Shown one piece after another: positions 157-25,913 of a stretch of DNA of 32,000 nucleotides (position 1 is the stretch's first letter; every line of letters starts with the position of its first letter). The position numbers were made by a program, and so were the translations under genes. The notes under the pieces were generated by a model. The model had not been told where the DNA came from. It did not search any database and saw nothing but the letters and a program-made list of their open reading frames with translations. This DNA is from Gemmata obscuriglobus (GTDB lineage Bacteria > Planctomycetota > Planctomycetia > Gemmatales > Gemmataceae): assembly GCF_008065095.1 (NCBI RefSeq), contig NZ_CP042911.1, positions 5,220,001-5,252,000 on the forward strand. Direction: 5' to 3'.

Positions 157-247
157 GCCGAACAAACAGCTCACCTGCACCGCCATCACCGGATGAGCGA
201 TGCGCCTCAAATCAGATGGCGGTGTCAGGTGCAGCGCCGGGTTCGGC
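157..247 (-). repeat. attC-like structured inverted repeat (copy 1)
   Basis: GCCGAAC(157-163)-AAACA-GCT-CACCTG-CACCGCC / loop ATCACCGGATGAGCGATGCG... / GGCGGTG-T-CAGGTG-C-AGC-GCCGG-GTTCGGC(241-247). Read directly. Confidence 0.7.
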
Positions 248-254
248 CTTGAGC

Positions 255-410
255 CTAGTCCTTGCCAAGCACCAAGTCCACCACTCGAAAGCCCCGGACG
301 TGCGGACCGGAGCTGCGGCAGTGACCGAGCAACTGCTCGTCCTCGCACCCGACGTCTTGGAGCGCGTCGGCCAGGACCGGCATCGCGGAGAACTCCCGCG
401 ACACATCCAT
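255..410 (-). CDS. 51-aa ORF encoding a conserved C-terminal-type module (...LADALQDVGC...HCR..GPHVRGFRVVDLVLGKD); possibly the severed 3' part of the upstream cassette gene
   Basis: ATG 410-408, TAG 257-255. Translation is MDVSREFSAMPVLADALQDVGCEDEQLLGHCRSSGPHVRGFRVVDLVLGKD. I recognise this motif as recurrent in planctomycete/myxobacterial proteins but do not recall the family name. It is in the same frame as the upstream ORF tail (444-485), separated only by TGA 441-443. Confidence 0.45.
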   Translation of the reverse strand: MDVSREFSAMPVLADALQDVGCEDEQLLGHCRSSGPHVRGFRVVDLVLGKD

Positions 411-490
411 CTGACGGGCCAGCGCCAGAGCCGTGCCCGATCACCATCGCTCGGAGAAACTCACCGCCACCTTCTCAAGGAAGACTTCGA

Positions 491-1558
491 TAGGACTTAC
501 GTAGTTGACTTTTGGGTAAGTAGGTATGTAGGTGCGGCGAGGTAGGTTCGCACCGCTTCGCGCACGATGGCCGTCTTGGCCGCGAACCAACTGACGCCGG
601 ACTTGAGCCGGTGCCACTCGAGCCGCAGGAACGCGCGGATCGCGAGCCCGATGTGGACCGCTTGGGCCCGGCTCATGCGCACCTGGCACCGGTCCACGTG
701 GCAATGCTGCTTGAGGCCCCGGTGATACTCCTCGATGCCCCACGCGTGCCCGGCCAGAACCGCACGAGTGGCCTCGTCCATGTCGAGGTCGTTGGTGATC
801 CAATGCTCCGTGCCCCCATCACCGGTGGCGATCCGGAACGCCTTCACCAATCCGAACCCCTCCAGGTGCACCACCGTACCGGCGGCCCCGATCGGGCACC
901 CCTCGATGGCCCGATTGCCCGTGCGATCCGGGTTCACCCGCCGGTTGCTCCGCACCCGGGTCAGGAAGTGCCACCCCAGGGCCCGCACCGCCTTCAGGTT
1001 GTCCTTGCCCGAGTACCAGGTGTCGAACAGTACCACCCGGGGCGACAGGTCCCGTCCCTTGGCGACCGCCAGCATGGCTCGGAAGTGGTCGTTCTTGGTC
1101 TCGGCTCGGGCCGGGTCGGCGAGCCGGTAATCACACGGTACCAGGGCGGCCCCGTCGGTCCACAGCAGGGTCACCAGCCCGATCCCGCTCACCACCCGGC
1201 GGTGCCGCCCGGACCAGCACCGGCGCACCAGCCCCATGTGCCGGGCGAACGGCTTGTCCAGCACCGAGTCGTCGAGCACCACGGCACCGCCCGGGCGGAC
1301 CGACGACCGGGCTTCGTCCCACAACGCCGCTGGGTCCGGTTCCAGCCGGTGCAGCAGTCGGGTGAACGCATCATGCGCGGGCGCCGTCGGATGGTCCGGT
1401 TGGGCTCGCGCGGCTTCCGCGGCCGACGCCACCTTGGGGGTGGCGATCAGGAATTGGATGTAGTCCTCGGCGCTCGCACGTGGTGCGTTCATGGCCCGAT
1501 CATAGACCAACAACACACCATGCGCAAATCCTGCGCCAGCGCAACTGCGTAAGTCCTA
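491..1558 (-). mobile_element. IS701-like (IS4-superfamily) insertion sequence with 5-bp target duplication
   Basis: Terminal inverted repeats TAGGACTTACGTAGTTG (491-507) and CAACTGCGTAAGTCCTA (1542-1558) match 16/17. Direct repeat TTCGA lies at 486-490 and 1559-1563. A single transposase ORF fills the element. Confidence 0.85.
497..1516 (-). CDS. DDE transposase, IS701-like
   Basis: 339-aa ORF. Motifs ...VLFDTWYSGKDNLKAVRALGWHFLTRVRSNRRV... and ...WGIEEYHRGLKQHCHVDRCQVR... are typical of IS701/IS4-type DDE transposases. Family assignment is from memory. Confidence 0.8.
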   Translation of the reverse strand: MLLVYDRAMNAPRASAEDYIQFLIATPKVASAAEAARAQPDHPTAPAHDAFTRLLHRLEPDPAALWDEARSSVRPGGAVVLDDSVLDKPFARHMGLVRRCWSGRHRRVVSGIGLVTLLWTDGAALVPCDYRLADPARAETKNDHFRAMLAVAKGRDLSPRVVLFDTWYSGKDNLKAVRALGWHFLTRVRSNRRVNPDRTGNRAIEGCPIGAAGTVVHLEGFGLVKAFRIATGDGGTEHWITNDLDMDEATRAVLAGHAWGIEEYHRGLKQHCHVDRCQVRMSRAQAVHIGLAIRAFLRLEWHRLKSGVSWFAAKTAIVREAVRTYLAAPTYLLTQKSTT

Positions 1559-1939
1559 TTCGATCTCCGTGTCGCTGTTGTTGCCCACGAACTCCCCGAA
1601 CACCCCGCCCAGGAACGACCAGCCCCCACGGTCCATCAGCACTGCGAGTTTGTCGAACGGGATGCGGACCAGCCACTCCGGTTGCTGCCCCTGGGCTACG
1701 AAGTACTCACGGGCGACAGTCACCAAGTCGTCGATGCTCCGAACTCCGGGGTCGCAAGAGTCGGCGAGGTCGCCTTCGGGTAACTCCTGCTCCTGCCACC
1801 CCCACACACCGGAGTCGGAGGCGAATGCGTCGTGGAGGCCGTCAACCTCGTCGGACCACACTTCCGGCACGTCATGTTCGCGGTAGCTGAAGACGAACTT
1901 GGCTCGCCGGCCCGCAGTGCGGTTCTTACCGTCTCCCAT
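1556..1939 (-). CDS. Cassette ORF, hypothetical 127 aa, 3' end displaced by the IS insertion
   Basis: ATG 1939-1937 is preceded by GGAGGGG, about 20 nt after the attC-like core. The stop TAG (1558-1556) is supplied by the IS terminus. Removing the IS and one TSD copy restores ...DTEIEVFLEKVAVSFSERW* using 441-485. Confidence 0.7.
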   Translation of the reverse strand: MGDGKNRTAGRRAKFVFSYREHDVPEVWSDEVDGLHDAFASDSGVWGWQEQELPEGDLADSCDPGVRSIDDLVTVAREYFVAQGQQPEWLVRIPFDKLAVLMDRGGWSFLGGVFGEFVGNNSDTEIE

Positions 1940-1959
1940 CCGCTGCGTCCCCTCCGGTG

Positions 1960-2050
1960 GCCGAACGAACAGCTCACCTGCACCGCCATCACCGGATGAG
2001 CGGTGCGTCCCAAGTCAGCGGGCGGTGTCAGGTGCAGCGCCGGGTTCGGC
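1960..2050 (-). repeat. attC-like structured inverted repeat (copy 2)
   Basis: Cores GCCGAAC 1960-1966 and GTTCGGC 2044-2050. Consensus arms with bulged T and C on the right arm. Loop class ATCACCGGATGAGCGG. Confidence 0.7.
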
Positions 2051-2385
2051 TCGCTCACGTCCGCGCCGCGCATCCGCGGAAGCCCGCCCACCGGTGCGGG
2101 CGGGCGGAGCACCACCGACCCGATGCGCCGTGTCGCGGCCCACCGGAGGCCACCCACTGCCACCCGCGGCGATGAGCCGCGCCCGGCACCCCCGGGCACC
2201 ACGCGGAGCCACCACCGACCCGCACCGCCGTGTCCCCACGCGCCGCCAGCCACGACCAACCGCACCTCGCGGCGATGAGCCGCGCCCGTCGCACTCGGGC
2301 ACCACGCGGAGCCCGACCCGCGGCGTTTACTCACGCGGACCACACGCCCACCACCGCCGCACGCGCGATCATGCACGCGGTGGTT
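2051..2385 (-). repeat. ORF-less cassette family U, copy U1
   Basis: 335 bp between attC-like sites. Two ~100-bp sub-repeats each carry CGCGGCGATGAGCCGCG (2165-2181, 2268-2284). Essentially identical to 2900-3234. Confidence 0.75.
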
Positions 2386-2475
2386 GCCGAACAACAAGCT
2401 CACCTGCACCGCCAGGATGAAGTGCGCATGACAACGGTGGCCGATGGCGGTGTCAGGTGCAGCGCCGGGTTCGGC
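2386..2475 (-). repeat. attC-like structured inverted repeat (copy 3)
   Basis: Cores at 2386-2392 and 2469-2475. Same arms, with a different loop class (AGGATGAAGTGCGCATGACAACGG...). Confidence 0.7.
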
Positions 2476-2808
2476 TCGCTCACGTCCGCGCCGCGCATCC
2501 GCGGATGCCCGCGCCACCGATGCGGCCACGCGGAGCACCGCCGACCCGGAGCACCGTGTCGCCGCACGTCGGAGGCCACCCACCACCCCCACTCGCGGCG
2601 ACGAGCCGCGCCGACCACCGACCGGTGTTGGCGGAGCGCCACCGACCCGAACCGCCGTGTCCCCACCCGCCGCCCGCCACGCCCAACCGCACCTCGCGGC
2701 GACGAGCCGCGCCCGCGCCCACCGGCACTCTGCGGAGCCCGACGCGCGGGGTTCACCCACGCGGACCACACGCACACCGCCGCACGGGCGCTCCAGCACG
2801 CGAGGGTG
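2476..2808 (-). repeat. ORF-less cassette family U, copy U2 (diverged)
   Basis: 333 bp with the same block order as U1, carrying substitutions and indels. Contains the perfect palindrome GCATCCGCGGATGC and two CGCGGCGACGAGCCGCG hairpins. Confidence 0.75.
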
Positions 2809-2899
2809 GCCGAACGAACAGCTCACCTGCACCGCCATCACCGGATGAGCGGTGCGTCCCAAGCCCGATGGCGGTGTCAGGTGCAGCGCCGGGTTCGGC
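2809..2899 (-). repeat. attC-like structured inverted repeat (copy 4)
   Basis: Cores at 2809-2815 and 2893-2899. Consensus arms. Confidence 0.7.
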
Positions 2900-3234
2900 T
2901 CGCTCACGTCCGCGCCGCGCATCCGCGGAAGCCCGCCCACCGGTGCGGGCGGGCGGAGCACCACCGACCCGATGCGCCGTGTCGCGGCCCACCGGAGGCC
3001 ACCCACTGCCACCCGCGGCGATGAGCCGCGCCCGGCACCCCCGGGCACCACGCGGAGCCACCACCGACCCGCACCGCCGTGTCCCCACGCGCCGCCAGCC
3101 ACGACCAACCGCACCTCGCGGCGATGAGCCGCGCCCGTCGCACTCGGGCACCACGCGGAGCCCGACCCGCGGCGTTTACTCACGCGGACCACACGCCCAC
3201 CACCGCCGCACGCGCGATCATGCACGCGGTGGTT
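2900..3234 (-). repeat. ORF-less cassette family U, copy U3 (duplicate of U1)
   Basis: Reads the same as 2051-2385 by eye. The ORF-track translations through the two copies are identical. Confidence 0.75.
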
Positions 3235-3325
3235 GCCGAACGAACAGCTCACCTGCACCGCCATCACCGGATGAGCGGTGCGTCACAAGTCAGCGGGCGG
3301 TGTCAGGTGCAGCGCCGGGTTCGGC
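3235..3325 (-). repeat. attC-like structured inverted repeat (copy 5)
   Basis: Cores at 3235-3241 and 3319-3325. Consensus arms. Confidence 0.7.
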
Positions 3326-3659
3326 TCGCTCACATCCGCGCCGCGCATCCGCGGATGCCCGCCCACCGGTGCGACCGGGCGGAGCACCACCGAACCACGG
3401 CGCCGTGTCCCGACACATCGGGGGCCACCCACCACCGCCACACGCGGCGATGAGCCGCGCCCGCAACCGATCGGTCTCAGCGGAGCACCACCGACCCGCA
3501 CCACCGTGTCCCCATCCGCACCCGGCCACAACCACCGCAAGCTCGCGGCGACGAGCCGCGCCAGCCCCAACCGGCACCACGCGAAGCCCGACGCGCGCGG
3601 TTCACCACCGCGGACCACACGCACACCGCCGCACGCGCGCCCTCATGCACGCGATGGTT
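3326..3659 (-). repeat. ORF-less cassette family U, copy U4 (diverged)
   Basis: 334 bp with the same block order and two hairpin motifs (about 3443 and 3543). Confidence 0.75.
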
Positions 3660-3750
3660 GCCGAACATAAAGCTCACCTGCACCGCCATCACCGGATGAG
3701 CGGTGCGTTCCAAGTCAGCGGGCGGTGTCAGGTGCAGCGCCGGGTTCGGC
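3660..3750 (-). repeat. attC-like structured inverted repeat (copy 6)
   Basis: Cores at 3660-3666 and 3744-3750. Consensus arms. Confidence 0.7.
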
Positions 3751-4179
3751 GTACCGTGTCGATCGGGCGCCCAGCCAGAAGCAAGCGGCAGCCCCGACCA
3801 CGGCGTCCGCCGTCACCCCACCCACCAGCAGCCAGGCGAGTGGTTTTACTTGCCCTCCCCGGAACACCACTAGGAGAAGGAAGCAGAGCACGCCTGTGGC
3901 GACCAGACCGCTGAACAGGTAGCCGAACAGATTGGCCGGCGCCCTGTCGGGTCGCCTCCACCGGTACAGCGACCAGACCAACCCGGCCGTTGCTCCGATC
4001 ACCGCCCCGCAGGGGGGGCCAAAGAGATAGAGAACAAGCCCGAGGGCATTGAAGCCCTCCCCGGGCTTGGGAGGGAACATCCGGGGCTGGATCAATTCGA
4101 CGAAGGCAACTGCACCGAGAAAAACGAGCACCGCACCAGCAACAGCCGCAGCCAGGGTCCAGCCGATGACACGAAGCAC
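3715..4179 (-). CDS. Cassette ORF: small 4-TM membrane protein (~154 aa)
   Basis: Proposed GTG start at 4179-4177, 6 nt after AAGGTG (alternative GTG at 4188). Four hydrophobic spans: WTLAAAVAGAVLVFLGAVAFV, ALGLVLYLFGPPCGAVIGATAGLVW, LFGYLFSGLVATGVLCFLLLVVF, LAWLLVGGVTADAVVGAAACFWL. The 3' end runs into the attC-like site. Confidence 0.55.
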   Translation of the reverse strand: MLRVIGWTLAAAVAGAVLVFLGAVAFVELIQPRMFPPKPGEGFNALGLVLYLFGPPCGAVIGATAGLVWSLYRWRRPDRAPANLFGYLFSGLVATGVLCFLLLVVFRGGQVKPLAWLLVGGVTADAVVGAAACFWLGARSTRYAEPGAAPDTAR

Positions 4180-4242
4180 CGCGTTCACCTTGGGTTGTCG
4201 GCCCGTACTAGAGCGGAGTGCTTTTGCACGAGAGCCTCTGTG

Positions 4243-4333
4243 GCCGAACAAAGAGCTCACCTGCACCGCCACCATCGGATGAGCGGTGCGTCCCAAGTCA
4301 GCCGGCGGTGTCAGGTGCAGCGCCGGGTTCGGC
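4243..4333 (-). repeat. attC-like structured inverted repeat (copy 7)
   Basis: Cores at 4243-4249 and 4327-4333. Consensus arms. Confidence 0.7.
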
Positions 4334-4340
4334 TCTGTCC

Positions 4341-4718
4341 TCAGCGCGGTCGGCGCATGACGACGAGAGTGCGTCCTCCGCTCGCGGTGTCCAAGCTCAC
4401 GACCAGTTGAGCGTAGGCCGGGGCGCCCTGCAGCCGTACTTCTTCGATCACTGTGCCGTCGTCGTCCTGTGCCCGACAGATCATCGACCCACCTGGCCCG
4501 AGACATGAACCGCCGGCAAGGGATTTGCGGTATGGTCCCGGCAATCGGGGCGGGGCCACGACCTCCCACCCATCGTATCCGGCCACGACGGCTTCCAGGG
4601 AGACGAACGGTCGCTCCTGTCGTGTGGCCGATTCCGCGTGCCGGCCCCAGGGTGACAGCCAATAACCGGCACACCCCGCACCGAGTAACACGACGACCAC
4701 AAGCCACCGCACCCGCAT
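4341..4718 (-). CDS. Cassette ORF: putative lipoprotein (125 aa)
   Basis: ATG 4718-4716 follows GGAAGGGGGA. N-terminus MRVRWLVVVVLLGAGCAG is a signal peptide with a lipobox-like LLGAGC. Stop lies 8 nt before the attC-like site. Confidence 0.65.
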   Translation of the reverse strand: MRVRWLVVVVLLGAGCAGYWLSPWGRHAESATRQERPFVSLEAVVAGYDGWEVVAPPRLPGPYRKSLAGGSCLGPGGSMICRAQDDDGTVIEEVRLQGAPAYAQLVVSLDTASGGRTLVVMRRPR

Positions 4719-4735
4719 CCGATCCCCCTTCCGGT

Positions 4736-4848
4736 GCCGAACGATGAAGCTCACCGGCCCGGCCGCGACACCCGTGTGCGGCAGAGACGCGCGGGGAGCA
4801 ACGGGAAACAAACTACATGGCCGGGTCCGGTGCAGCGCCGGGTTCGGC
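4736..4848 (-). repeat. attC-like structured inverted repeat (copy 8, covarying stem, long loop)
   Basis: GCCGAAC(4736-4742)-GATGAA-GCT-CACCGG-CCCGGCC / 55-nt loop / GGCCGGG-T-CCGGTG-C-AGC-GCCGG-GTTCGGC(4842-4848). Stem bases changed on both arms; bulged T and C retained. Confidence 0.7.
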
Positions 4849-4871
4849 GTGCCTTTGCTCCAGGCGGGCGG

Positions 4872-5249
4872 CTACATGACGTGGATGTCCTTGAGCCGCA
4901 CCACCTGCCCGCCCTGCACGCGGACCAGCCAGAACGTCGCGGTCAGGTCGGAAGCCACCCCGTCGATGTTGAGGTCGTACCAAATCTCGCCCACCGCGTC
5001 GGACCCGTCGGCCGCTTCCCAGCGGTCCACCACCCTGCGCTGGGGAAGCCCACGCGACTCGCCCGCGACGGTAGCGCGTCCGCCAGAGCCCTCGATCGCC
5101 CACCGCACGCGGTTCGGTGCCCAGCGCCCCTCGTCAGGAGGGATCAACTCGTTCGCGGCCTCGTAGTCGCCTTGCTCCAGAAGTCCCACCCAGCGATCGA
5201 CCAGCGCCACCAACTCAGCGTCGGTGGCGGCCTCTGGTAGTGGCGACAT
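4872..5249 (-). CDS. Cassette ORF: hypothetical protein (125 aa)
   Basis: ATG 5249-5247 lies 18 nt after the core of the upstream attC-like site; TAG at 4874-4872. Acidic soluble protein ending ...DLTATFWLVRVQGGQVVRLKDIHVM. No family recognised. Confidence 0.65.
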   Translation of the reverse strand: MSPLPEAATDAELVALVDRWVGLLEQGDYEAANELIPPDEGRWAPNRVRWAIEGSGGRATVAGESRGLPQRRVVDRWEAADGSDAVGEIWYDLNIDGVASDLTATFWLVRVQGGQVVRLKDIHVM

Positions 5250-5266
5250 GGATCAGCGCCTCGGGT

Positions 5267-5356
5267 GCCGAATGTGGAGCTCACCTGCTCGCGCGCCCTG
5301 GAGGGGGCGATCCCCGAGTTCTGCATGCGCGAGTCTGGTGCAGCGGAGGGTTCGGC
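5267..5356 (-). repeat. attC-like structured inverted repeat (copy 9, covarying stem; extra third arm at 5395-5413)
   Basis: GCCGAAT(5267-5273)-GTGGA-GCT-CACCTG-CTCGCGC / loop / GCGCGAG-T-CTGGTG-C-AGC-GGAGG-GTTCGGC(5350-5356). In addition, 5395-5413 GGTGAGCTCCACATTCGGC is the perfect reverse complement of 5267-5285. Confidence 0.65.
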
Positions 5357-5552
5357 CCCGCGCCCCACCACGCCGAACATGGGCTGCCCGTGAAGGTGAG
5401 CTCCACATTCGGCCCCGCTCATGCAGCCCGGCAGATGAGCTACACCGATCCGCTCGCGCCTCGGGGGTGGGCGCGGGTCGGGCCAGCCACTTGGGATGGG
5501 GGGCTGGCTACCCTATCGACATCGCGCCCACCCCCGTGGGTCTCGGCGCGGG

Positions 5553-5642
5553 GCCGAACAGAAAGCTCACCTGCACCGCCAGGATGGAGTGAGCGACACA
5601 ACGGCGGCTGATGGCGGTGTCAGGTGCAGCGCCGGGTTCGGC
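5553..5642 (-). repeat. attC-like structured inverted repeat (copy 10)
   Basis: Cores at 5553-5559 and 5636-5642. Consensus arms. Loop class AGGATGGAGTGAGCG.... Confidence 0.7.
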
Positions 5643-6002
5643 TCGCTCGCCTCCGCGGTTCCGGGCGACACGCCGAGCTTGGCGCATCCGCGGAACCCGC
5701 GGCACCGGTGCGGCCGAGCGGAGCCCCACCGACTCGAATCGCCGTGTCGCGGCCCACCGGTGGCCACCCATCACCGCACCTCGCGGCGACGAGCCGCGCC
5801 CGCCCTGACGCGCGCCACGCGGAGCACCACCGACCCGAACCGCCGTGTCCCCACCCGCACCCCGGCCACGCCCAACCACACCTCGCGGCGACGAGCCGCG
5901 CCCGCCCCGACCGGCACCACGCGGAGCCACCACCGACGCGTGGGCGTCACCTTCGCGGACCACACGCCCACCACCGCACGCGCGATCCAGAACGCGAAGG
6001 TG
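5643..6002 (-). repeat. ORF-less cassette family U, copy U5
   Basis: 360 bp, same block order, two CGCGGCGACGAGCCGCG hairpins. Confidence 0.75.
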
Positions 6003-6093
6003 GCCGAACATAAAGCTCACCTGCACCGCCCCCTCCCAGGGAGCGATGCGTCACAAACTCGCGGGCGGTGTCAGGTGCAGCGCCGGGTTCGGC
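6003..6093 (-). repeat. attC-like structured inverted repeat (copy 11)
   Basis: Cores at 6003-6009 and 6087-6093. Loop class CCCTCCCAGGGAGCGATGCG. Identical to copy 14. Confidence 0.7.
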
Positions 6094-6446
6094 TCGCTCC
6101 GCACCGCGGTTCCTGGCCACGGGCCGAGCGTCGCGCATCCGCGGAGCCCGTGCCACCGGTGCGGGCGTGCGGAGCACCACCGACTCGACGCACCGTGTCG
6201 CGGCCCACCGGAGGCCACCCACCACCGCACCTCGCGGCGATGAGCCGCGCCAGGCACCCACGGGCACCACGCGGAGCACCACCGACTCGAACCGCCGTGT
6301 CCCCACGCGCCCCCGGCCACGCCCACCCGCACTTCGCGGCGACGAGCCGCGCCAACCACCGACCGGCACCACGCGGAGCCACCACCGTCTGATGCCCCGC
6401 GGACCACACGCCCACCGCCGCCCGCGCGCTCCAGAACGCCCGGGTG
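6094..6446 (-). repeat. ORF-less cassette family U, copy U6 (identical to U8)
   Basis: 353 bp. Reads identical to 7406-7758, and the ORF-track translations are identical. Confidence 0.75.
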
Positions 6447-6538
6447 GCCGAACAATCAAGCTCACCTGCACCGCCATCACACGATGAGCGGTGCGCCCCG
6501 AATCAGCGGGCGGTGTCAGGTGCAGCGCCGGGTTCGGC
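6447..6538 (-). repeat. attC-like structured inverted repeat (copy 12)
   Basis: Cores at 6447-6453 and 6532-6538. 6-nt unpaired spacer AATCAA on the left arm. Confidence 0.7.
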
Positions 6539-6955
6539 GTCTGTGAGCCACCGCACTGCGAAGTGGTCGTAGTGCAGGGCCGCGAACCGCTCGCGGAGTT
6601 GGGCCGCGAGCCACCAGAACTTGGCCCGGCGGTCGGCGGTCAGACCCGGGTCGGACCACACAGATAGCCGGCGGGAGCACCCGGCGACCACCTCCGGCGG
6701 GGCCGGTAGGTCAGGGCCGGCGGCCAGTTCTGCGCTGTCGGCCAACACCTCCGCTCCCTCCTCCAACCACGCCACCACGGCCCAGGAGGTGAACCGCACC
6801 CGGAAACCGGTTGGGCTACGGGCTTCGGGTGCTAACTCGGCCTGGACCGACCGCCGACCGCACTGTCGGCCATCGAAGTACGCGACAGCCGCAGCCAGAG
6901 AGAAGTCACTCGACGCCGGCAAGTGCGCCAACATCTTCAGACGACCGTCGCTCAT
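6503..6955 (-). CDS. Cassette ORF: hypothetical protein (150 aa)
   Basis: ATG 6955-6953 (MSDGRLKMLAHL...) lies 15 nt after the core, with AGAGGG upstream. The track's longer N-terminus (MMAVQVSFMFG) is a translation of the attC loop. The C-terminal tail ...AEPGAAPDTAR is encoded by the downstream attC-like site. Confidence 0.6.
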   Translation of the reverse strand: MSDGRLKMLAHLPASSDFSLAAAVAYFDGRQCGRRSVQAELAPEARSPTGFRVRFTSWAVVAWLEEGAEVLADSAELAAGPDLPAPPEVVAGCSRRLSVWSDPGLTADRRAKFWWLAAQLRERFAALHYDHFAVRWLTDAEPGAAPDTAR

Positions 6956-6970
6956 CCGCGGCCCTCTGGT

Positions 6971-7061
6971 GCCGAACATAAAGCTCACCTGCACCGCCAT
7001 CATCGGATGAGCGGTGCGTCACAAACGAGCGGGCGGTGTCAGGTGCAGCGCCGGGTTCGGC
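6971..7061 (-). repeat. attC-like structured inverted repeat (copy 13)
   Basis: Cores at 6971-6977 and 7055-7061. Consensus arms. Confidence 0.7.
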
Positions 7062-7314
7062 TCGCATGACTCCGCGGTTCGGGGGCGCACGCCGAGCGTC
7101 GCGGCTCCGCGGAGCCCGGGCCACCGGTGCGGCCGAGCGGAGCACCACCGACCCGCATCACCGTGCTGCCGCACACCGGAGGACACGACCAACCGCACCT
7201 CGCGGCGATGAGCCGCGCCGGCCACCCACCGGCACCACGCGGAGCCCGACACCGGAGTTCGCCCACGCGGACCACACGCCTACCGCCGCACGCGCCCTCA
7301 TGCACGCGAGGGTT
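7062..7314 (-). repeat. ORF-less cassette family U, short copy U7 (one sub-repeat)
   Basis: 253 bp with only one CGCGGCGATGAGCCGCG hairpin (about 7200). Head and tail blocks are as in the other copies. Confidence 0.7.
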
Positions 7315-7405
7315 GCCGAACATAAAGCTCACCTGCACCGCCCCCTCCCAGGGAGCGATGCGTCACAAACTCGCGGGCGGTGTCAGGTGCAGCGCCGGGT
7401 TCGGC
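7315..7405 (-). repeat. attC-like structured inverted repeat (copy 14)
   Basis: Cores at 7315-7321 and 7399-7405. Identical to copy 11. Confidence 0.7.
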
Positions 7406-7758
7406 TCGCTCCGCACCGCGGTTCCTGGCCACGGGCCGAGCGTCGCGCATCCGCGGAGCCCGTGCCACCGGTGCGGGCGTGCGGAGCACCACCGACTCGA
7501 CGCACCGTGTCGCGGCCCACCGGAGGCCACCCACCACCGCACCTCGCGGCGATGAGCCGCGCCAGGCACCCACGGGCACCACGCGGAGCACCACCGACTC
7601 GAACCGCCGTGTCCCCACGCGCCCCCGGCCACGCCCACCCGCACTTCGCGGCGACGAGCCGCGCCAACCACCGACCGGCACCACGCGGAGCCACCACCGT
7701 CTGATGCCCCGCGGACCACACGCCCACCGCCGCCCGCGCGCTCCAGAACGCCCGGGTG
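7406..7758 (-). repeat. ORF-less cassette family U, copy U8 (identical to U6)
   Basis: See 6094-6446. Confidence 0.75.
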
Positions 7759-7849
7759 GCCGAACAAATAGCTCACCTGCACCGCCATCACCGGATGAGC
7801 GATGCGTCACAACTCAGATGGCGGTGTCAGGTGCAGCGCCGGGTTCGGC
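7759..7849 (-). repeat. attC-like structured inverted repeat (copy 15)
   Basis: Cores at 7759-7765 and 7843-7849. Consensus arms. Confidence 0.7.
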
Positions 7850-8185
7850 TTCGTCGCTGGCAGTTGCGGTTCCGCGAAGCCCGCGCTCGTACCGCGCATC
7901 CGCGGAGCCACCACCGACACCCACCACCGTGTCGCGGCCCACCGAGGGCCACCCACCACCGCACCTCGCGGCGATGAGCCGCGCCGACCACCGGCGGGCG
8001 CCACGCGGAGCGCCACCGACCCGAACCGCCGTGTCCCCATGCGCACCCGGCCACGCCCAACCACACCTCGCGGCGGCGAGCCGCGCCAGACCCGATCGGC
8101 ACCACGCGGAGCCCGACCCGCGGGCGTCACCCACGCGGACCACACGCCCACAACCGCCGCACGCGCGATCGAGCGCCTCGGGGTT
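7850..8185 (-). repeat. ORF-less cassette family U, copy U9
   Basis: 336 bp with two hairpin motifs; the second is the variant CGCGGCGGCGAGCCGCG. The tail is the same as in the partial copy at 1-156. Confidence 0.75.
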
Positions 8186-8277
8186 GCCGAACCAGGAGCT
8201 GAGCTGCAAGCCGCCCCTCTCAGGGCGGTCTCCCCTTGCTCCCGCGACGGCTTGTCAGCTCCAGCGGGGGGTTCGGC
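8186..8277 (-). repeat. attC-like structured inverted repeat (copy 16, covarying stem; extra third arm at 8315-8338)
   Basis: GCCGAAC(8186-8192)-CAGGA-GCT-GAGCTG-CAAGCCG / loop / CGGCTTG-T-CAGCTC-C-AGC-GGGGG-GTTCGGC(8271-8277). In addition, 8315-8338 is the perfect reverse complement of 8186-8209. Confidence 0.65.
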
Positions 8278-8511
8278 CGACGGCCGCCTCCTTCCGCCAG
8301 AGGGTGAGTGAGCGTTGCAGCTCAGCTCCTGGTTCGGCCGCCGCCGGATCCGCTCAGCCCACCGGGGACATCGCACGGCGGGAGATCACCATGCGACCTC
8401 AGGCCGCTCGGATCGGCGGGCCCTCGCCGGTCGCCTTCACCAGGGGGGAGGTGGCGACAACCTTACGACCGCCCGCCGATCCGCGGCGCGTACAACCACC
8501 TCACGGCGGCG

Positions 8512-8602
8512 GCCGAACGAACAGCTCACCTGCACCGCCATCATCGGATGAGCGATGCGTCCCGGAACAGATGGCGGTGTCAGGTGCAGCGCCGGGTTCG
8601 GC
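8512..8602 (-). repeat. attC-like structured inverted repeat (copy 17)
   Basis: Cores at 8512-8518 and 8596-8602. Consensus arms. Confidence 0.7.
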
Positions 8603-9065
8603 CTCGGGTGCGACACGAGCCAGCCAAGGGCGGCTCGTCTGAGTCGGCAACGAGGCCGGGGGAAGGCGGCTCGCCCTCGGCCAACGCTACTATGCCCTCG
8701 GCCTCCTCCTGCTCGGCGTCACTCATGCCGTCGAGGATGCTCCGCACGTTGTCGCCGTACATCCTCGCGGCCAACAGCGGAGCCAACTCGCGAAAGTCCG
8801 GCCCGTCGGTGCCAAAGTTCAAGAAGTGCTCGAACAGCACCTCCGACCCACGCTTGTCCTCGACTTCCCGCTTGTGCGGGCCGATACCGATCCAGTTGAC
8901 TTGCCCGTCGATGCCGTTGGACACGGCCTCCGAGCCGATGCCGCCGACGCCGACGACCGCATCGTACTCGCGGTCGCGGACGATGCCCATGCAGTCATGC
9001 ACACCGAAGCAACCGCTCGCGTCGGGGTCGCCGTTGTGCGTTCGCTTGTAAACTAGCACTCGCAT
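8580..9065 (-). CDS. Cassette ORF: hypothetical protein (161 aa)
   Basis: ATG 9065-9063 lies 6 nt after GAGGAG and 22 nt after the attC-like core. MRVLVYKRTHNGDPDASGCFGVHDCMGIVRDREYDAVVGVGGIG... looks like a globular conserved protein, but I do not recognise the family. The 3' end reads into the attC-like site. Confidence 0.7.
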   Translation of the reverse strand: MRVLVYKRTHNGDPDASGCFGVHDCMGIVRDREYDAVVGVGGIGSEAVSNGIDGQVNWIGIGPHKREVEDKRGSEVLFEHFLNFGTDGPDFRELAPLLAARMYGDNVRSILDGMSDAEQEEAEGIVALAEGEPPSPGLVADSDEPPLAGSCRTRGRTRRCT

Positions 9066-9087
9066 GACGGCTCCTCGACCTTCTGGT

Positions 9088-9178
9088 GCCGAACATAAAG
9101 CTCACCTGCACCGCCATCATCGGATCAGCGATGCGTTCCGAATCAGCCGGCGGTGTCAGGTGCAGCGCCGGGTTCGGC
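9088..9178 (-). repeat. attC-like structured inverted repeat (copy 18)
   Basis: Cores at 9088-9094 and 9172-9178. Consensus arms. Confidence 0.7.
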
Positions 9179-9183
9179 GTGCC

Positions 9184-9588
9184 TTATTGGGCGTCGCGGG
9201 CCTCCTGCCGCAGCTCCGCCAGATACACCTCGAAGCTGCCGTACCGCTCCTCGACCTCGTGGGCCTCGTGTTGGTAGAACCCGACACCCCACATGGCACC
9301 ACCGCGGTCCACGAACCAGTAGTCCCCAGCCCCGTTGGTGCCGACGACGAGGTAGCTCGCTGGCCACGGCTCCTCGTCCTCACCAACGGTCATCCAGGCC
9401 GCCCGCTGCCGCGCCGCCAAATTCTCTCGGATGATGGCATCCGCGTCGGTCCACAGCACAGCGCGTTGCGGGAGGGTCGCCTTGATCCGGCGAACTTCGT
9501 CAGCGTGGCGGCGGAGGAAGTCGCGGTACTCGCCGGGCAGCGGATGGCCGAGCGCCGACTCGATCCGGGCAACCTCGGCTTCGCCCAT
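9184..9588 (-). CDS. Cassette ORF: SMI1/KNR4 (SUKH-1) family protein, immunity-protein-like (134 aa)
   Basis: MGEAEVARIESALGHPLPGEYRDFLRRH... plus ...YLVVGTNGAGDYWFVDRGG...GFYQHE match the SMI1/KNR4 pattern (N-terminal 'LP.eY..FL', central 'G.GdY' block). ATG 9588 lies 17 nt after core 9606-9612, with GGAGGG upstream. Confidence 0.75.
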   Translation of the reverse strand: MGEAEVARIESALGHPLPGEYRDFLRRHADEVRRIKATLPQRAVLWTDADAIIRENLAARQRAAWMTVGEDEEPWPASYLVVGTNGAGDYWFVDRGGAMWGVGFYQHEAHEVEERYGSFEVYLAELRQEARDAQ

Positions 9589-9605
9589 CCGAGAGCCCTC
9601 CGGGT

Positions 9606-9830
9606 GCCGAACCAGTGTTTAGTGTGCGAGGCTTCGCGCAATAACACGGGATGATTTCACCCGGCGCACCACGCGCCGGGAACCGAACTACTTGCCGGAA
9701 CTGTCGTTACCGTGTGAAGGGCGTCTTCACAATATGCGCAACAACACGGTAATGGGCCGTGCGAAACTTCGACTCACACCTTCACGGCTCGCACAATAAC
9801 ACGGTAACGGTCCGTGCGAACGTGAACGTT
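9606..9830 (-). promoter_or_regulatory. Array boundary: lone core half-site (GCCGAAC 9606-9612) followed by a repeat-rich non-coding region; candidate attI-like / regulatory region
   Basis: The core is present, but no arm sequences and no partner GTTCGGC follow. Three direct copies of GCRCAAYAACACGG lie at 9636-9649, 9736-9749 and 9791-9804; the last two extend to ~32 nt (...ACACGGTAAYGGKCCGTGCGAA). An inverted partial copy GTTACCGTGT lies at 9706-9715, and a hairpin CCGGCGC-ACCAC-GCGCCGG at 9661-9679. Confidence 0.4.
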
Positions 9831-10151
9831 ACTTCGGTGCTTCTCGCGGTGATCTTTGCTTTCTAGTTGCACGGGCCGGCGCATTCTCTCGCGCCGATCG
9901 GGCCGACACGATCAGAAGTGTACCCACGTCGTCGCCCGCGCTCAAGACCCTTATCCCGATTCGGTCCAGTGTCTGCGCGCCCGTTCGCCCATCTCGTTCC
10001 GCCGGCGCCGCACTCATTGCGCCGCTCGCGGAGCCATCCCACCTCCCGCACACTGAACATGATTCCTTGACATACCCACCCCGGCGGCACCAGCGGACGG
10101 GGCAACACAGCGTCTTCCGGGCTCCCAACCGATCACCAAGGCCGTACCCAC

Positions 10152-10182
10152 TTAAAACGCCCGGCTGGAGGATCAGCCGGGC
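10152..10182 (-). terminator. Rho-independent-type terminator downstream of 10211-11482
   Basis: Stem GCCCGGCTG (10159-10167) / CAGCCGGGC (10174-10182) with loop GAGGAT. On the minus strand it is followed by GTTTTAAG. Lies 29 nt after the stop codon. Confidence 0.6.
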
Positions 10183-10210
10183 GCAGTTTCAGACCGAGCA
10201 GTCCACCGGA

Positions 10211-11482
10211 TCAGCTCTTTTCATCGTCCTTGTCTTCCACTGACCGGATGAACTCCAGCGCGCCACGCCGCACGCCCCCGACGGCACGCCAGTAGCCCAC
10301 TACCACGATTAGCCAGCCCATCAGGATCGCCGCCTGCTCGTAGAGCAGCCAATCGGCGTCCGGCTTCTTCGGGCGCCCGTGAATTACGTACTGCTCCCAC
10401 CCGACGATTACGAGAACCGGAATGAGGGCGAAAAGGAACCCGAGCCACCCGACCTGCCGGGCCACCTTCGGCCGCTTGAGCGCGAGCCCGCTGGCGGTCA
10501 GCGCGGTGAGGAACCAGAACTCCGCCAGCGGGGCGGACACGAGCAGCGCCAGCCGCGCGTACTTCACCTCCTCCGGGAACGGCACCTTCTCGCACACGAT
10601 CCAAACCGGCACGGACACGAAGGCGACCAGGGTCAGGAGACCGCTCAGCGCGAACATTCCGCCGGCGCCGCTGTTCCGCGGGGCGCCGCCGCTGAACAGC
10701 CGCCCGATCACCATCAGGAACCCGGCCAGCGCGCCGAGCAGCCCGTAGGTGGCGAGGTTGATTTCGTCGGACTTCGAGAGCGGGATCGAGTTCGGCCCGC
10801 CCGAGTTGATGTAGCCTTCGATCTGGACCCACCCCTCGCCCTTGGGCAGTTCGCCGACGGAGCGAGTGTAAACCGCTTTGCCGAACTCGACGAACCCGAG
10901 CAGCGCGACGAACAGCAGCGAGAACCGGACCCAGAAGAGCCCGCGGCGCACGGACGCCCACTTCTTCGCGAGCACCTGTTCGGGGTTCTTCTCCGCCGCC
11001 TTCTTCTTGGGCTCGGGCGCGGCCGGCTTGGGGCGCGGCTTGCTCCCGCGGTCACCTCGCTTGGGCGCGGGCGGCGGTGCGTCCGGGTCCGGTTCGAGTT
11101 CGGGCGGCGGGGCCGACGGGAACGGCCGCGACGCGGCGGTCGGCACCGGGCCGGTGGCGGCGGGTTGGTTCGGCAGCGCACCCCAATCGGCCGCGGCGGC
11201 CGGCGACTCGGGCAGTTTGGCCCGCACCGGCGCGACGGGCGGGCGCGACGGGGCCGGGCGCGGCTGCGACGGCGGCAGCAGGTCCGACTCGAACGCGGGC
11301 CGCGACGGGGCCGGGGGCGGCGGCGGCGGCTCGACCGGGACCGTCGGCGCGGCCCCGCCCTCTTCGGGCACCGGCACCGGCACCGCGGTCTGGCAGTACG
11401 GGCACTTCACCCGCTTACCCGCGGACTCGTCGCGGGCGCGGAACCGCTTCCCGCACGACGGGCACCCCAGTGTGATCGGCAT
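10211..11482 (-). CDS. Zinc-ribbon / Pro-rich linker / multi-TM membrane protein (423 aa)
   Basis: N-terminus MPITLGCPSCGKRFRARDESAGKRVKCPYCQ has CxxC...CxxC. A long P/A-rich linker is followed by several hydrophobic spans in the C-terminal half. Confidence 0.8.
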   Translation of the reverse strand: MPITLGCPSCGKRFRARDESAGKRVKCPYCQTAVPVPVPEEGGAAPTVPVEPPPPPPAPSRPAFESDLLPPSQPRPAPSRPPVAPVRAKLPESPAAAADWGALPNQPAATGPVPTAASRPFPSAPPPELEPDPDAPPPAPKRGDRGSKPRPKPAAPEPKKKAAEKNPEQVLAKKWASVRRGLFWVRFSLLFVALLGFVEFGKAVYTRSVGELPKGEGWVQIEGYINSGGPNSIPLSKSDEINLATYGLLGALAGFLMVIGRLFSGGAPRNSGAGGMFALSGLLTLVAFVSVPVWIVCEKVPFPEEVKYARLALLVSAPLAEFWFLTALTASGLALKRPKVARQVGWLGFLFALIPVLVIVGWEQYVIHGRPKKPDADWLLYEQAAILMGWLIVVVGYWRAVGGVRRGALEFIRSVEDKDDEKS

Positions 11483-11553: not shown

Positions 11554-12561
11554 CTATTGTGCGGATTCGGAACCGGAACGGTTACTCTCCGCGGCCGCGC
11601 GCCCGGCCGCAAAGAGCGAGTAGTGAATGAACGAGTACGCGGCATTAAACAGGTAGACGACCAAGAGGCCGCCCAAAAGGAGGCCCGCGCGCTGTGCGAC
11701 CGGTATCGGGGCGGCAGGCGGTGCGGGCCGCGCCGCGGGGACCGGCGCCGGGCGCGGCAGAAACTCCGCAAACAGACCGGCATAGATGATCAGCGCCATG
11801 AGCACGACCCAGGCGGACACCATCAACTGGAGCGCCAGCGCGACCGCTCCCGCCCGCCGGCGGAGCCGGTCGGTCGGCAGCGCGCCGCCGACAACTCCCA
11901 TCCCGGCGACTACACTCACTTCCGCCACGAAGCCGGCAACGGCAGCGAGCGCGTACAGCCGTCCGACCCACTCGGTCCCCACCGCCCGGTCGCCGCGGCT
12001 CACCAGCGCGAACGCCACGAAGAGCAGCGCGCAGAGGAGCGCCAGGAACCGCAAACCGCTCAAGCAGAACGCGCCCATCAGGACGCCCAAGCCGCTGGTC
12101 CCGGCCGGCAACTGCAGCATCATCAACCGCCCGGCGCAGACGCAGCCGGTGCCGACGAGGAGGAGGCCAAAGAACACGGGCGCAGAATAGTCGCTGTTGA
12201 CCCGAGCAACCGGGATCACTCCGAGCCGCCCAAGCCCCACACCCGCCACGACCATAAACATTAGCGTGACGGCAAGGAACTCCGTCACGATGCCCCACTC
12301 GACCCACCGACACCCGCGGGCGAACGACCGCCACGGCCCCGCCGAGCCGTGCCCCGCGGTTCCGCGAGTGCGGCGGCCCGGCACCGGCGATTTGCGGGTC
12401 ACCGGCGGCTCGCCCTCATCGGGAATCGGAAGCAGTTCGACCTCTGGGCCCGGCACGGTCGAGAGCGCCTTGCAGTGGGGGCACCGGACCAATTGTCCGG
12501 CCCGGTGCTCCGGTGCCTCAAGCGGTTCGTCGCAGTGCGAGCAGGTGAGCGAAATCGGCAT
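11554..12561 (-). CDS. Zinc-ribbon multi-TM membrane protein, paralog-like of the downstream gene (335 aa)
   Basis: N-terminus MPISLTCSHCDEPLEAPEHRAGQLVRCPHCK has CxxC...CxxC. The C-terminal half is hydrophobic. Confidence 0.75.
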   Translation of the reverse strand: MPISLTCSHCDEPLEAPEHRAGQLVRCPHCKALSTVPGPEVELLPIPDEGEPPVTRKSPVPGRRTRGTAGHGSAGPWRSFARGCRWVEWGIVTEFLAVTLMFMVVAGVGLGRLGVIPVARVNSDYSAPVFFGLLLVGTGCVCAGRLMMLQLPAGTSGLGVLMGAFCLSGLRFLALLCALLFVAFALVSRGDRAVGTEWVGRLYALAAVAGFVAEVSVVAGMGVVGGALPTDRLRRRAGAVALALQLMVSAWVVLMALIIYAGLFAEFLPRPAPVPAARPAPPAAPIPVAQRAGLLLGGLLVVYLFNAAYSFIHYSLFAAGRAAAESNRSGSESAQ

Positions 12562-24334: not shown

Positions 24335-25913
24335 TAAGCGTTCACGGGCGATTTGCCCCGCGTTTTCCCGTGCCTTTTGAGCCCTTTCCGTGGGCGGTTG
24401 CCACTGGCGAGTGTGTCCTGTGACCGATCTAACGCCATGACACCTGTTCCTCAACCGCCGGACCTCCCAGTCGACCTGCCGCCTCACGTGGTGGCGTATA
24501 TCCGGGCACTCGAAGCCACGATTGCCCAGCTCACGGCCCAGGTCGCCGAACTGACCGCCCGTCTCAACCAGAACTCGACCAACTCGTCGAAGCACCCGTC
24601 GTCCGACGCCCCGCACGTGAACCCGGCCCCGCCCAAGGGGGCCTCGGGCACGCGTCGCGGGGGCCAACCGGGACACCCCAAAGCGGAACGCACCGTTCTG
24701 CCGCCCGATGAGATCCGGGCCCTCCAGCCGTCCACGTGCCGGGGGGGCGCGCCCGCTGACCGGGGACGACCCGGAACCGGCCGTTCATCAGGTCCACGAG
24801 ATCCCCGTCGTCAAGCCCCACGTGACCGAGTACCGGTGCCACCGGCTCCGGTGCCCACACGGCGGCACGACCACGGTGTCCCTGGTGCCCGCCGGGGCGA
24901 CCACCGGATACGGCCCTCGGGCCCAGGCCGTGGCCGCGCTTCTCACCGGCTCGTGCCGCCTAGGCAAGCGGGGCGTGAGCCAACTGTTCGGCGACCTGTT
25001 CGGGCTACCGCTGAGCCCGGCCATGGTGTGCAAGCTCCAGCACCGATCCGCCCAGGCGCTGGCCCCGGTGGCCGACGCGGCCCTCGTCTACACCCGTGGC
25101 CAACCGGCCAACGTGGACGAAGCGGGCTGGACGCAAGGGCGTCAGCGGGCCTGGCTGTGGGCCGCCGTGACCACGCTGGTGGTGGCGTTCCTGATCCGCC
25201 GGACTTGTGGCCGAGCCGCCTTGGACGACCTCCGGGCCGGTTCGACCCAGGTGCACACGACCGACCGGTATCCGGTGTACACCCACTTGCGCCCGCACAA
25301 GCGGCAAGTGTGTTGGGCGCACCTGCGACGCGATTTCCAGGCGATGATCGACCGGGGCGGTTCCGGACAGGCGATCGGCGCGGCTCTGCTGGCGTGTTCG
25401 GACGCCCTGTTCGAGAACTGGTATCGGGTGCGGGACGGAACCCTCGCGCGGTCCACATGTCGCTCGACCTACATCCCCGCGTTGCGTCGTCAGGTTGGGG
25501 AGCACCTGCGGAGCGGGGCCGCGTGCGGCTGCGCCGAGACGGCCGCCACCTGCGCGGAGTTGTTGGCGGTCGAGGCGTCACGGTGGACGTTCGCGCGGGT
25601 GGCCGGCGTGGAACCGACCAACAACGCGGCCGAGCGCGAGGTGCGTCACGCCGTGTGCTGGCGGAAGACCAGCACACGGCACCGACAGCGAACGCCGGAG
25701 CCGGTTCGTAGAGCGGGTCCTCACGGTCATCGCCTCGTGTCGCCGGCAGAACCGCCATGTCCTGGAGTTCCTCACCGACGCCGTGACCGCGCACCGCACC
25801 GCACCGGCGCGACACCGCCGACCCTAATCCCAGCCGAAGCCCAACAGACTCCGATGCGGAATTCACTCCTCGCCAACTGTTGATACACTGCCGCATCACC
25901 CGTGAACGCTTAC
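24334..25913 (+). mobile_element. IS66-family insertion sequence (single-ORF type), degenerate
   Basis: Terminal inverted repeats GTAAGCGTTCACGGG (24334-24348) and CCCGTGAACGCTTAC (25899-25913), 15/15. GTAAGCG termini are characteristic of IS66. No 8-bp TSD is visible. Confidence 0.8.
24437..25827 (+). pseudogene. IS66-family transposase, disrupted by two +1 frameshifts
   Basis: N-terminal ...LEATIAQLTAQVAELTARLNQNSTNSSKHPSSDAP...GGQPGH.... The frame changes in the G7 run at 24741-24747 and again near 25671-25677, where ...CWRKTS|HGTDSERRSRFVERVLTVIASCRRQNRHVLEFL continues in the third frame. Confidence 0.8.

Follow-up and report, generated by a model that had tools for sequence, protein, structure and literature searches.

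The attI1 site of class 1 integrons is composed of a simple site, in which the L box lies 3 nt from the R box, plus the elements DR1 and DR2, DR2 being placed about 32 nt upstream. The sedentary chromosomal superintegron of Vibrio cholerae is usually described as a single array with a single attI and a divergent intI; it is long, its attC sites are near-identical and typical of the species, and its cassettes are mostly of unknown function. Beyond class 1, attI sites are poorly described (Néron et al.). In the 'inverted integron-integrase' group (Treponema spp.), intI is on the strand of the cassettes (Cury et al. 2016). CALINs, recognized by two or more attC sites and the lack of an integron-integrase within 4 kb, account for about half of the integron-like elements in bacterial genomes and are usually viewed as broken pieces. 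Half of them are found in genomes with IntI, and they may come from rearrangement (Cury et al. 2016). A 2025 preprint reports that CALINs are mobilisable in trans.

The DNA analysed here is a 32-kb stretch (the window) of the Gemmata obscuriglobus chromosome with ~68% G+C, which lies in reverse orientation on CP025958.1 and has the head of a cassette array at position 9612 (~2,790,762 in that record). Four CALINs (39, 47, 133 and 48 attC) and a complete integron (78 attC) are listed for the species in Table S3 of IntegronFinder 2.0 (GCF_003149495.1). The array of the window belongs to the CALINs: about 40 attC sites are found in 20 kb, and neither the 22 kb on the side of attI nor the part of the array that was read contains intI. 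It resembles described CALINs in its many attC sites and in the presence of intI elsewhere in the genome (Cury et al. 2016; Néron et al. 2022). CALINs are, however, defined regardless of attI and usually seen as fragments, whereas this one has a complete, conserved attI with a leader. Compared to a complete integron, all parts are present save the integrase gene, the promoter being a candidate one.

The likeness to the V. cholerae superintegron lies in the long arrays, the near-identical species-typical attC sites and the predominance of cassettes of unknown function. The difference is that G. obscuriglobus distributes ~345 attC sites over five clusters, at least one of which has no integrase but its own attI. 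Like attI1, the attI unit of the window has a putative G/TT crossover in the R core, an inverted L-like site a few bases 5' of it, a direct repeat with a GTT core ~35 nt 5' and a further repeat beyond, and it lies at the boundary with the first cassette. It shows no sequence similarity to attI1, measures 155 nt against ~65 nt, has a longer motif (GTGTTAKTGYGCGA) and is located away from intI, and binding of IntI is putative here. As in the inverted integron-integrase group, intI of G. obscuriglobus, G. algarum and the other Gemmataceae loci examined points at the cassettes and ends right at attI, but the description of that group covers complete integrons and is silent on extra attI copies. 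Insertion of cassettes at attG secondary sites (Loot et al.; bioRxiv 10.1101/2022.09.11.507474) places them off-platform via a distant IntI, as is proposed for the window; attG sites are short degenerate genomic sequences, unlike the full attI homologue with accessory repeats of the window. A limited literature search returned no description of a CALIN with a full attI paralogue, of tandem attI sites or of several orphan attI sites per genome. While the four CALINs and the complete integron were already known, the new part, as read from sequence, is the orphan attI with its leader, which recurs in the lineage.

Cassette array and array head

The attC sites of the window array (Table 1) are 90-92 nt long, with one of 113 nt, and their spacing is 330-580 nt. 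At least 10 kb more of the array lies past the left window end. The + strand of the attC at 9086-9180 folds (z = -4.5) into a 7-bp R stem with 5-nt unpaired spacers and an L stem whose 3' arm has two single-base bulges (T and C), so that this site shows R and L boxes, an unpaired spacer in the centre and bases bulging from a single arm. An Rfam scan of the whole window gave no family at the gathering threshold, attC included. Extra-helical bases on that arm identify the folding strand (+) as the bottom strand, the one that recombines. The ORFs of the array with high third-position G+C are on the - strand and the bulges are in the 3' arm of the + strand, which identifies the high-coordinate end of the array as its promoter-proximal (attI) end.

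A number of observations concern the content of the array. SMI1/KNR4 (SUKH) immunity-like cassettes are repeated, namely at window 9184-9588 (-), L006 14178-14621 and L067 15577-16170. Cassettes of ~425 nt, with a G+C content of 74-76% and devoid of any convincing ORF of high GC3, occupy positions 1950-4340, 5550-6450 and 7060-8500 in runs; each has two copies of CCTCGCGGCGA(C/T)GAGCCGCGCC spaced ~102 nt apart (18 copies in the window), and this cassette type is also the first one behind the intI-adjacent attI (L067 11127-11900). They may code for small proteins or for structured RNA. A composite nested palindrome, formed by a variant attC (GCCGAACCAGGAGCTGAGCTGCAA...) around a second inner attC, is present at 8186-8338 and 5267-5420 and is kept in distant Gemmataceae (two copies in L036, and L058 1577-1721). 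The gene of an IS transposase (DDE_Tnp_1/DDE_5, 331 aa; window 497-1492, -) sits between two attC sites, and adjoining IS66-family and IS4-like transposase genes (24708-25883 and 26153-27556) are found ~15 kb from the array head. IS copies were considered as a path to the other arrays and discarded, identical copies of the 331-aa transposase gene being located at ~1.13 Mb and ~5.02 Mb of the chromosome, outside arrays. The region at ~5.01-5.03 Mb of CP025958.1 resembles a defence island, with a Piwi-domain protein adjoining a SEFIR/TIR protein, an AbiEi/AbiEii pair, a Cas4-like nuclease and a non-integron tyrosine recombinase.

A preliminary description of the window recorded a lone core GCCGAAC at 9606-9612 at the end of the array and read it as the junction of attI with attC. 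The core has indeed no GTTCGGC partner within 160 nt. The heptamer GCCGAAC is common by itself (61 copies in the window, ~1 per kb outside the array), so the significance of this copy rests on its context. On the cassette strand, GTTCGGC 9612-9606 is the same core as in the attC R boxes; it deviates from the GTTRRRY consensus at position 4. It is found 428 nt beyond the last attC, which is one cassette length, and 17 nt 5' of the RBS and ATG of the ORF 9588..9184 on the cassette strand, and it has the GGTGCCGAAC context, as at other sites. An attI boundary is thus recognizable at 9612, with the leader 5' of the core and sequence resembling a cassette start (RBS, ATG) 3' of it. An anchored alignment of the site with 13 further attI cores shows similarity that ends at the crossover, and the first cassette differs at each junction, orphan or intI-linked. 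With the crossover placed at 9612/9611, the sequence below 9612 is assigned to cassette 1.

Table 1. Features of the array, the attI unit, the leader and the flank (window positions; identity refers to G. algarum)
Feature	Position	Strand	Identity	Remarks
Cassette array	157..9178	-		~20 near-identical attC sites, GCCGAAC...GTTCGGC pairs
attC of first cassette	9088-9178	-		folded as 9086-9180
First cassette ORF	9184..9588	-		134 aa, SMI1/KNR4 (SUKH), Pfam PF09346, E 1.3e-12; RBS GGAGGG
R core GTTCGGC	9606..9612	-		lone core; inferred crossover G/TT between 9612 and 9611
attI unit, full-length, orphan	9613..9767	-		155 nt; paralogue, by homology, of the intI-adjacent attI
L-box-like inverted motif TCGCACACTAAACAC	9615..9629	-		inverted copy of GTGTTAKTGYGCGA; 2 nt 5' of R core
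Proximal block	includes 9615..9629		94%	
Proximal direct repeat (copy 1)	9634..9649	-		GTTATTG core 35 nt 5' of the GTT of the R core
Centre of attI unit			64%	
Inverted partial copy of distal-block motif (CGTTACCGTGT)	9705..9715	+		falls in the centre, which is poorly conserved
Distal attI block, GTTTCGCACGGCCCATTACCGTGTTGTTGCGCATATTGTGAAG	9725..9767	-	98%	includes copy 2 at 9736-9749
Extra partial duplicate of distal block	9780..9829	-	86%	copy 3 at 9791-9804; 41 nt, 78% vs 9725-9765
Upstream leader	9830..10013	-		conserved with G. algarum; starts at core-like GTGCGGC 10013-10007
Spacer	9911-9830		67%	
Candidate promoter	9945-9917	-		TTGAGC 9945-9940, 17-nt spacer, TACACT 9922-9917
Block of leader	10006-9975		91%	
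Terminator-like hairpin	10158..10183	-		10-bp perfect stem and TTTT; flank, outside the element
423-aa membrane-protein gene	10211-11482	-		flank of array

The attI unit and its leader

Three direct copies of GCRCAAYAACACGG had been reported next to the lone core, and they are exact at 9636, 9736 and 9791. None is expected by chance (100 shuffles), and there is no fourth copy in 32 kb at up to two mismatches. The last two had been described as longer, which is correct: the similarity of copies 2 and 3 covers 41 nt, with 78% identity and a spacing of 55 nt. An inverted partial copy is also confirmed, since 9705-9715 is 100% complementary to 9799-9809. Each of the three repeats holds a GTTRTTG core on the cassette strand, and the distal ones contain CACGG-N7-CCGTG palindromes. 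The order at the proximal end, read on the cassette strand, is GTGTTATTGCGCGA-AGCC-TCGCACACTAAACAC-TG-GTTCGGC (where GTGTTATTGCGCGA corresponds to 9647-9634), GTGTTATTGCGCGA and TCGCACACTAAACAC forming a 14-4-15 inverted repeat around AGCC. This pattern of inverted core sites and accessory direct repeats is present and conserved, and its elements are putative IntI-binding sites.

The repeats are the counterparts of two conserved blocks, one distal and one proximal, in attI sites that adjoin intI. In G. obscuriglobus, the stop codon of intI is directly followed by an attI of 157 nt, at about 6,642,928-6,643,090 of CP025958.1, that ends with ...GTGTTATTGTGCGAAGCGTCGCACACTAAACACTG (also given as ...CCCGTGTTATTGTGCGAAGCGTCGCACACTAAACACTG) before GTTCGGC. 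Window 9769-9606 is identical to this site (L067 10968-11133) at 137 of 172 positions (80%), and the two share the same crossover region, ...CGCACACTAAACACTG followed by GTTCGGC. The attC arms of the window array and of the intI-linked array are identical (15 and 18 exact 27-mers). The attI core, GTGTTRTTGYGCGARSYNTCGCACACYAAAC, and the distal block are also found directly behind intI in G. algarum (L054) and in L055-57, L058-59 and L060, the distal block of the relatives starting 0-3 nt past the intI stop codon. Three metagenomic/MAG relatives whose intI is 81-87% identical to G. algarum IntI are arranged alike. The unit that extends from stop codon to crossover measures 151-159 nt in every intI-adjacent case, and that of the window 155 nt. 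The occurrence of the repeats at unrelated promoters had been named in the preliminary description as the mark of an ordinary operator; GTGTTRTTGYGC is confined to attI leaders among the 66 loci compared. On these two grounds, the homology to the intI-adjacent attI (same genome, G. algarum and three relatives) and the restriction of GTGTTRTTGYGC to such leaders, 9613-9767 is by sequence a full-length attI paralogue, with the repeats as its conserved blocks, and the reading of the lone core as a junction of attI with attC holds.

The region 9830-10150 had been regarded as devoid of any credible ORF. This part of the claim stands, and in the larger interval 9588-10211 there is neither a gene in public records nor an ORF past the GC3 filter. 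The segment 9830-10013 is, however, not empty: it is 67-91% identical by block to G. algarum, in an alignment that needs a 1-nt gap plus a 14-nt gap or mismatched stretch. A counterpart of this leader was not found within 10 kb of the G. obscuriglobus intI. The candidate promoter TTGAGC-N17-TACACT is conserved with G. algarum and agrees with the consensus at only 8 of 12 positions; a sigma-70 scan found no promoter reaching threshold in the window leader or in three G. algarum orphan leaders. The candidate promoter regions of the window and of the G. algarum orphan leaders gave no convincing alignment.

Upstream of the leader, in window 10014-10160, resemblance to attI or intI is no better than that of shuffles in local alignments. 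The non-coding region ends, as previously described, at the terminator of a membrane-protein gene: the hairpin 10158-10183 is followed by TTTT and lies 3' of the gene coding the 423-aa protein. Note that the products of the adjacent genes 10211-11482 and 11554-12561 (-), which make up the flank of the array, both have an N-terminal zinc-ribbon and several membrane-spanning segments, with weak Pfam matches only. The locus, which has membrane-protein genes of 423 and 335 aa, also includes lpxK and hldE. A synteny check of the flanking genes in relatives gave no blastn or tblastn match in the loci compared.

The integrase and the history of the module

The position expected for the integrase gene had been described as empty. 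Searches by tblastn of 9613-10210, using as queries IntI1 and four Gemmataceae IntI (the IntI1 sequence is approximate and matches real intI genes at 51-55%), gave a best E of ~7, in agreement with the absence of intI or of a relic of it. The rest of the window and the 10 kb of array that adjoin it gave none either, and a Pfam search of the large ORFs of the window detected no recombinase. The expectation of a divergent intI beyond 9830 does not apply to this lineage. Its intI is co-oriented with the cassettes, being on the cassette strand in all nine intI loci examined, and ends 151-159 nt before the crossover, which sets the start of its expected position at ~9768. The adjacent intI that characterizes an attI is missing at 9613-9767, the gene being ~3.85 Mb off.

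When representative genomes were scanned for the attC arm, G. algarum, other Gemmata and further Gemmataceae assemblies were obtained. Four of these loci have intI, the stop of which is placed 56-150 nt 5' of the first GTTCGGC or GTTATGG in all four. Two intI frames, in L007 (Gemmata sp. MAG) and L008 (a MAG labelled Alcaligenaceae), are N-terminally truncated, with 289 and 268 codons between stops, respectively, and are possibly pseudogenes or assembly errors. The attC type of L008 is that of Gemmata, so the Alcaligenaceae label looks mis-binned.

The IntI of G. obscuriglobus (P0267, WP_010036109.1, 322 aa; CP025958.1 6,641,959-6,642,927) was located via the listing of the 90% cluster of G. 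algarum IntI. It scores 427 bits against TIGR02249 (cut-off 265) over profile positions 1-315 of 315, aligns end to end with VchIntIA (PDB 2A3V; residues 10-320, E 3e-84) and retains the RHSFATH and IYTHV motifs. From its sequence the protein looks intact and of full length. A second integrase was found neither within 22 kb on the attI side nor in the part of the array that was read, and the published table has one complete integron.

The history of the module is best followed in G. algarum JC717 (L054 10970-11534), where two tandem attI copies, A and B, are found behind intI. Copy A has the crossover core GTGCGGC instead of GTTCGGC, which makes copy B the probable active one in this organism. 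The window unit is homologous to copy B: window 10025-9613, read on the cassette strand, is 82% identical to the terminal 412 nt of the G. algarum contig, which begin 154 nt 3' of the intI stop, and this homology stops within ~15 nt of the copy A crossover. Pairwise identity is 0.87 between the B copies of the window and G. algarum, 0.78 between the intI-adjacent A copies, and 0.80 between A and B within G. obscuriglobus, values which place the duplication of attI before the split of G. obscuriglobus and G. algarum. Copy A of G. obscuriglobus stayed by intI, heading one array, and copy B with its leader heads another, 3.85 Mb away. The attI unit together with its 250-nt leader (to 10013) is, on this comparison, an old module. 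Since the orthologous module of G. algarum is still beside intI, linkage to the integrase gene is likely the ancestral state.

Proposed function of orphan attI sites in Gemmata

The reading that we favour, with a probability of about 0.7, is that 9613-9767 is an orphan attI that heads a CALIN and is served in trans by a distant IntI. The sole intI detected is ~3.85 Mb distant and has an attI of its own beside it, and the window array is therefore probably served from a distance. IntI synthesized from the distant gene would bind the GTT-core repeats of the orphan attI and, acting in trans, insert cassettes at 9612/9611. The first cassettes would be transcribed from a start in the leader, where the candidate promoter is held with low confidence. 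The preliminary description had left three explanations side by side: deletion of the integrase, its action in trans from elsewhere, and servicing of the array by something else. Action in trans is the best supported of these, since an intact IntI of 322 aa, whose attI and attC types match those of the window array, is encoded ~3.85 Mb away, and trans action of IntI on the orphan attI is what we infer from the sequences.

An attI and array that were split from intI by rearrangement or duplication and then fell out of use would appear as a frozen CALIN that has not yet decayed. Rearrangements and IS activity were proposed to have given rise to CALINs where the genome retains IntI (Cury et al. 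2016); IS copies are present in and near the window array, and the G. algarum orthologous module still adjoins intI. Recent separation from intI could also account for the conservation of the blocks without function. Decay would, however, be visible in the blocks, and the putative binding blocks are 94-98% identical to G. algarum against 64-67% for the spacers, a difference implying that purifying selection has acted on the putative binding sites in G. obscuriglobus and G. algarum alike. Moreover, the array has intact attC sites, whose arms are identical to those of the intI-linked array, and orphan attI sites are recurrent at other loci and in other genomes. A dead relic is accordingly judged unlikely. 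An origin by deletion in place would require that intI was once directly 5' of the window attI copy and was lost, leaving 10014-10210 as a scar. The close apposition of the distal block to the intI stop codon in relatives and a faint likeness of window 10090-10045 to the proximal part of G. algarum copy A are in line with such a loss, but the upstream resemblance is not significant (shuffling p 0.06, 0.15 and 0.43) and tblastn with the five IntI queries detected nothing better than E ~7 in 9613-10210. The flanks also differ from the surroundings of the G. obscuriglobus and G. algarum intI genes, and an intact intI with its own attI is present elsewhere in the genome. These observations leave little room for a deletion in situ, which is very improbable.

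The repeats might, in a third alternative, be ordinary transcription-factor operators for the promoter of the downstream genes and not bind a recombinase. The 14-4-15 inverted repeat has the shape typical of sites for dimeric regulators, and the CACGG-N7-CCGTG palindromes of the distal repeats would suit such a role. Yet the motif is found only at cassette-array heads in ~0.5 Mb of Gemmataceae loci, mostly right after the intI stop, each copy has a GTT-purine-rich core of the type recognised by integron integrases, and the spacing to the crossover parallels that of attI1. The chance that the repeats are operators instead of recombinase sites is therefore slight in the extreme, although the two roles are not mutually exclusive.

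Orphan sites are found beyond the window. G. algarum JC673 has at least four further attI-like junctions without an adjacent intI, one of them 340 nt after a tRNA-Cys gene. Nine attI-like loci were obtained in a metagenome scan with the attI core: the 3' end of intI is directly upstream in six, and three are orphan, including one behind a ClpB/C-like gene and one behind a metallophosphoesterase gene. Several orphan leaders (four loci) open with GTGCGGC or a GTTCGG-type core, and this start at a core-like sequence prompts the idea that the leader may be movable by site-specific recombination. The position of the G. algarum unit inside the first attI, in the manner of a cassette, fits a movable leader, as do the start of homology within ~15 nt of the crossover, at the core-like GTGCGGC, and the location of orphan sites behind tRNA-Cys, ClpB/C-like and phosphoesterase genes. 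Integrons of this lineage might then be distributed, with one integrase serving several platforms of attI and leader beside housekeeping genes and with the leader itself acting as a movable array seed; this extension is tentative and rather doubtful at present.

On the favoured reading of an orphan attI served in trans, an array without integrase keeps a complete and apparently selectively conserved attI, and its cognate IntI is encoded megabases away on the same chromosome. A further product of the comparison is a definition, in terms of sequence, of an attI outside class 1, a unit of ~155 nt with a conserved distal and a conserved proximal block; few definitions of this kind are available. 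Should the orphan sites prove active, integrons would not have to be single loci, several 'first cassettes' would be expressible at once per genome, and the numbers given for 'complete' and 'degraded' integrons would have to be revised.
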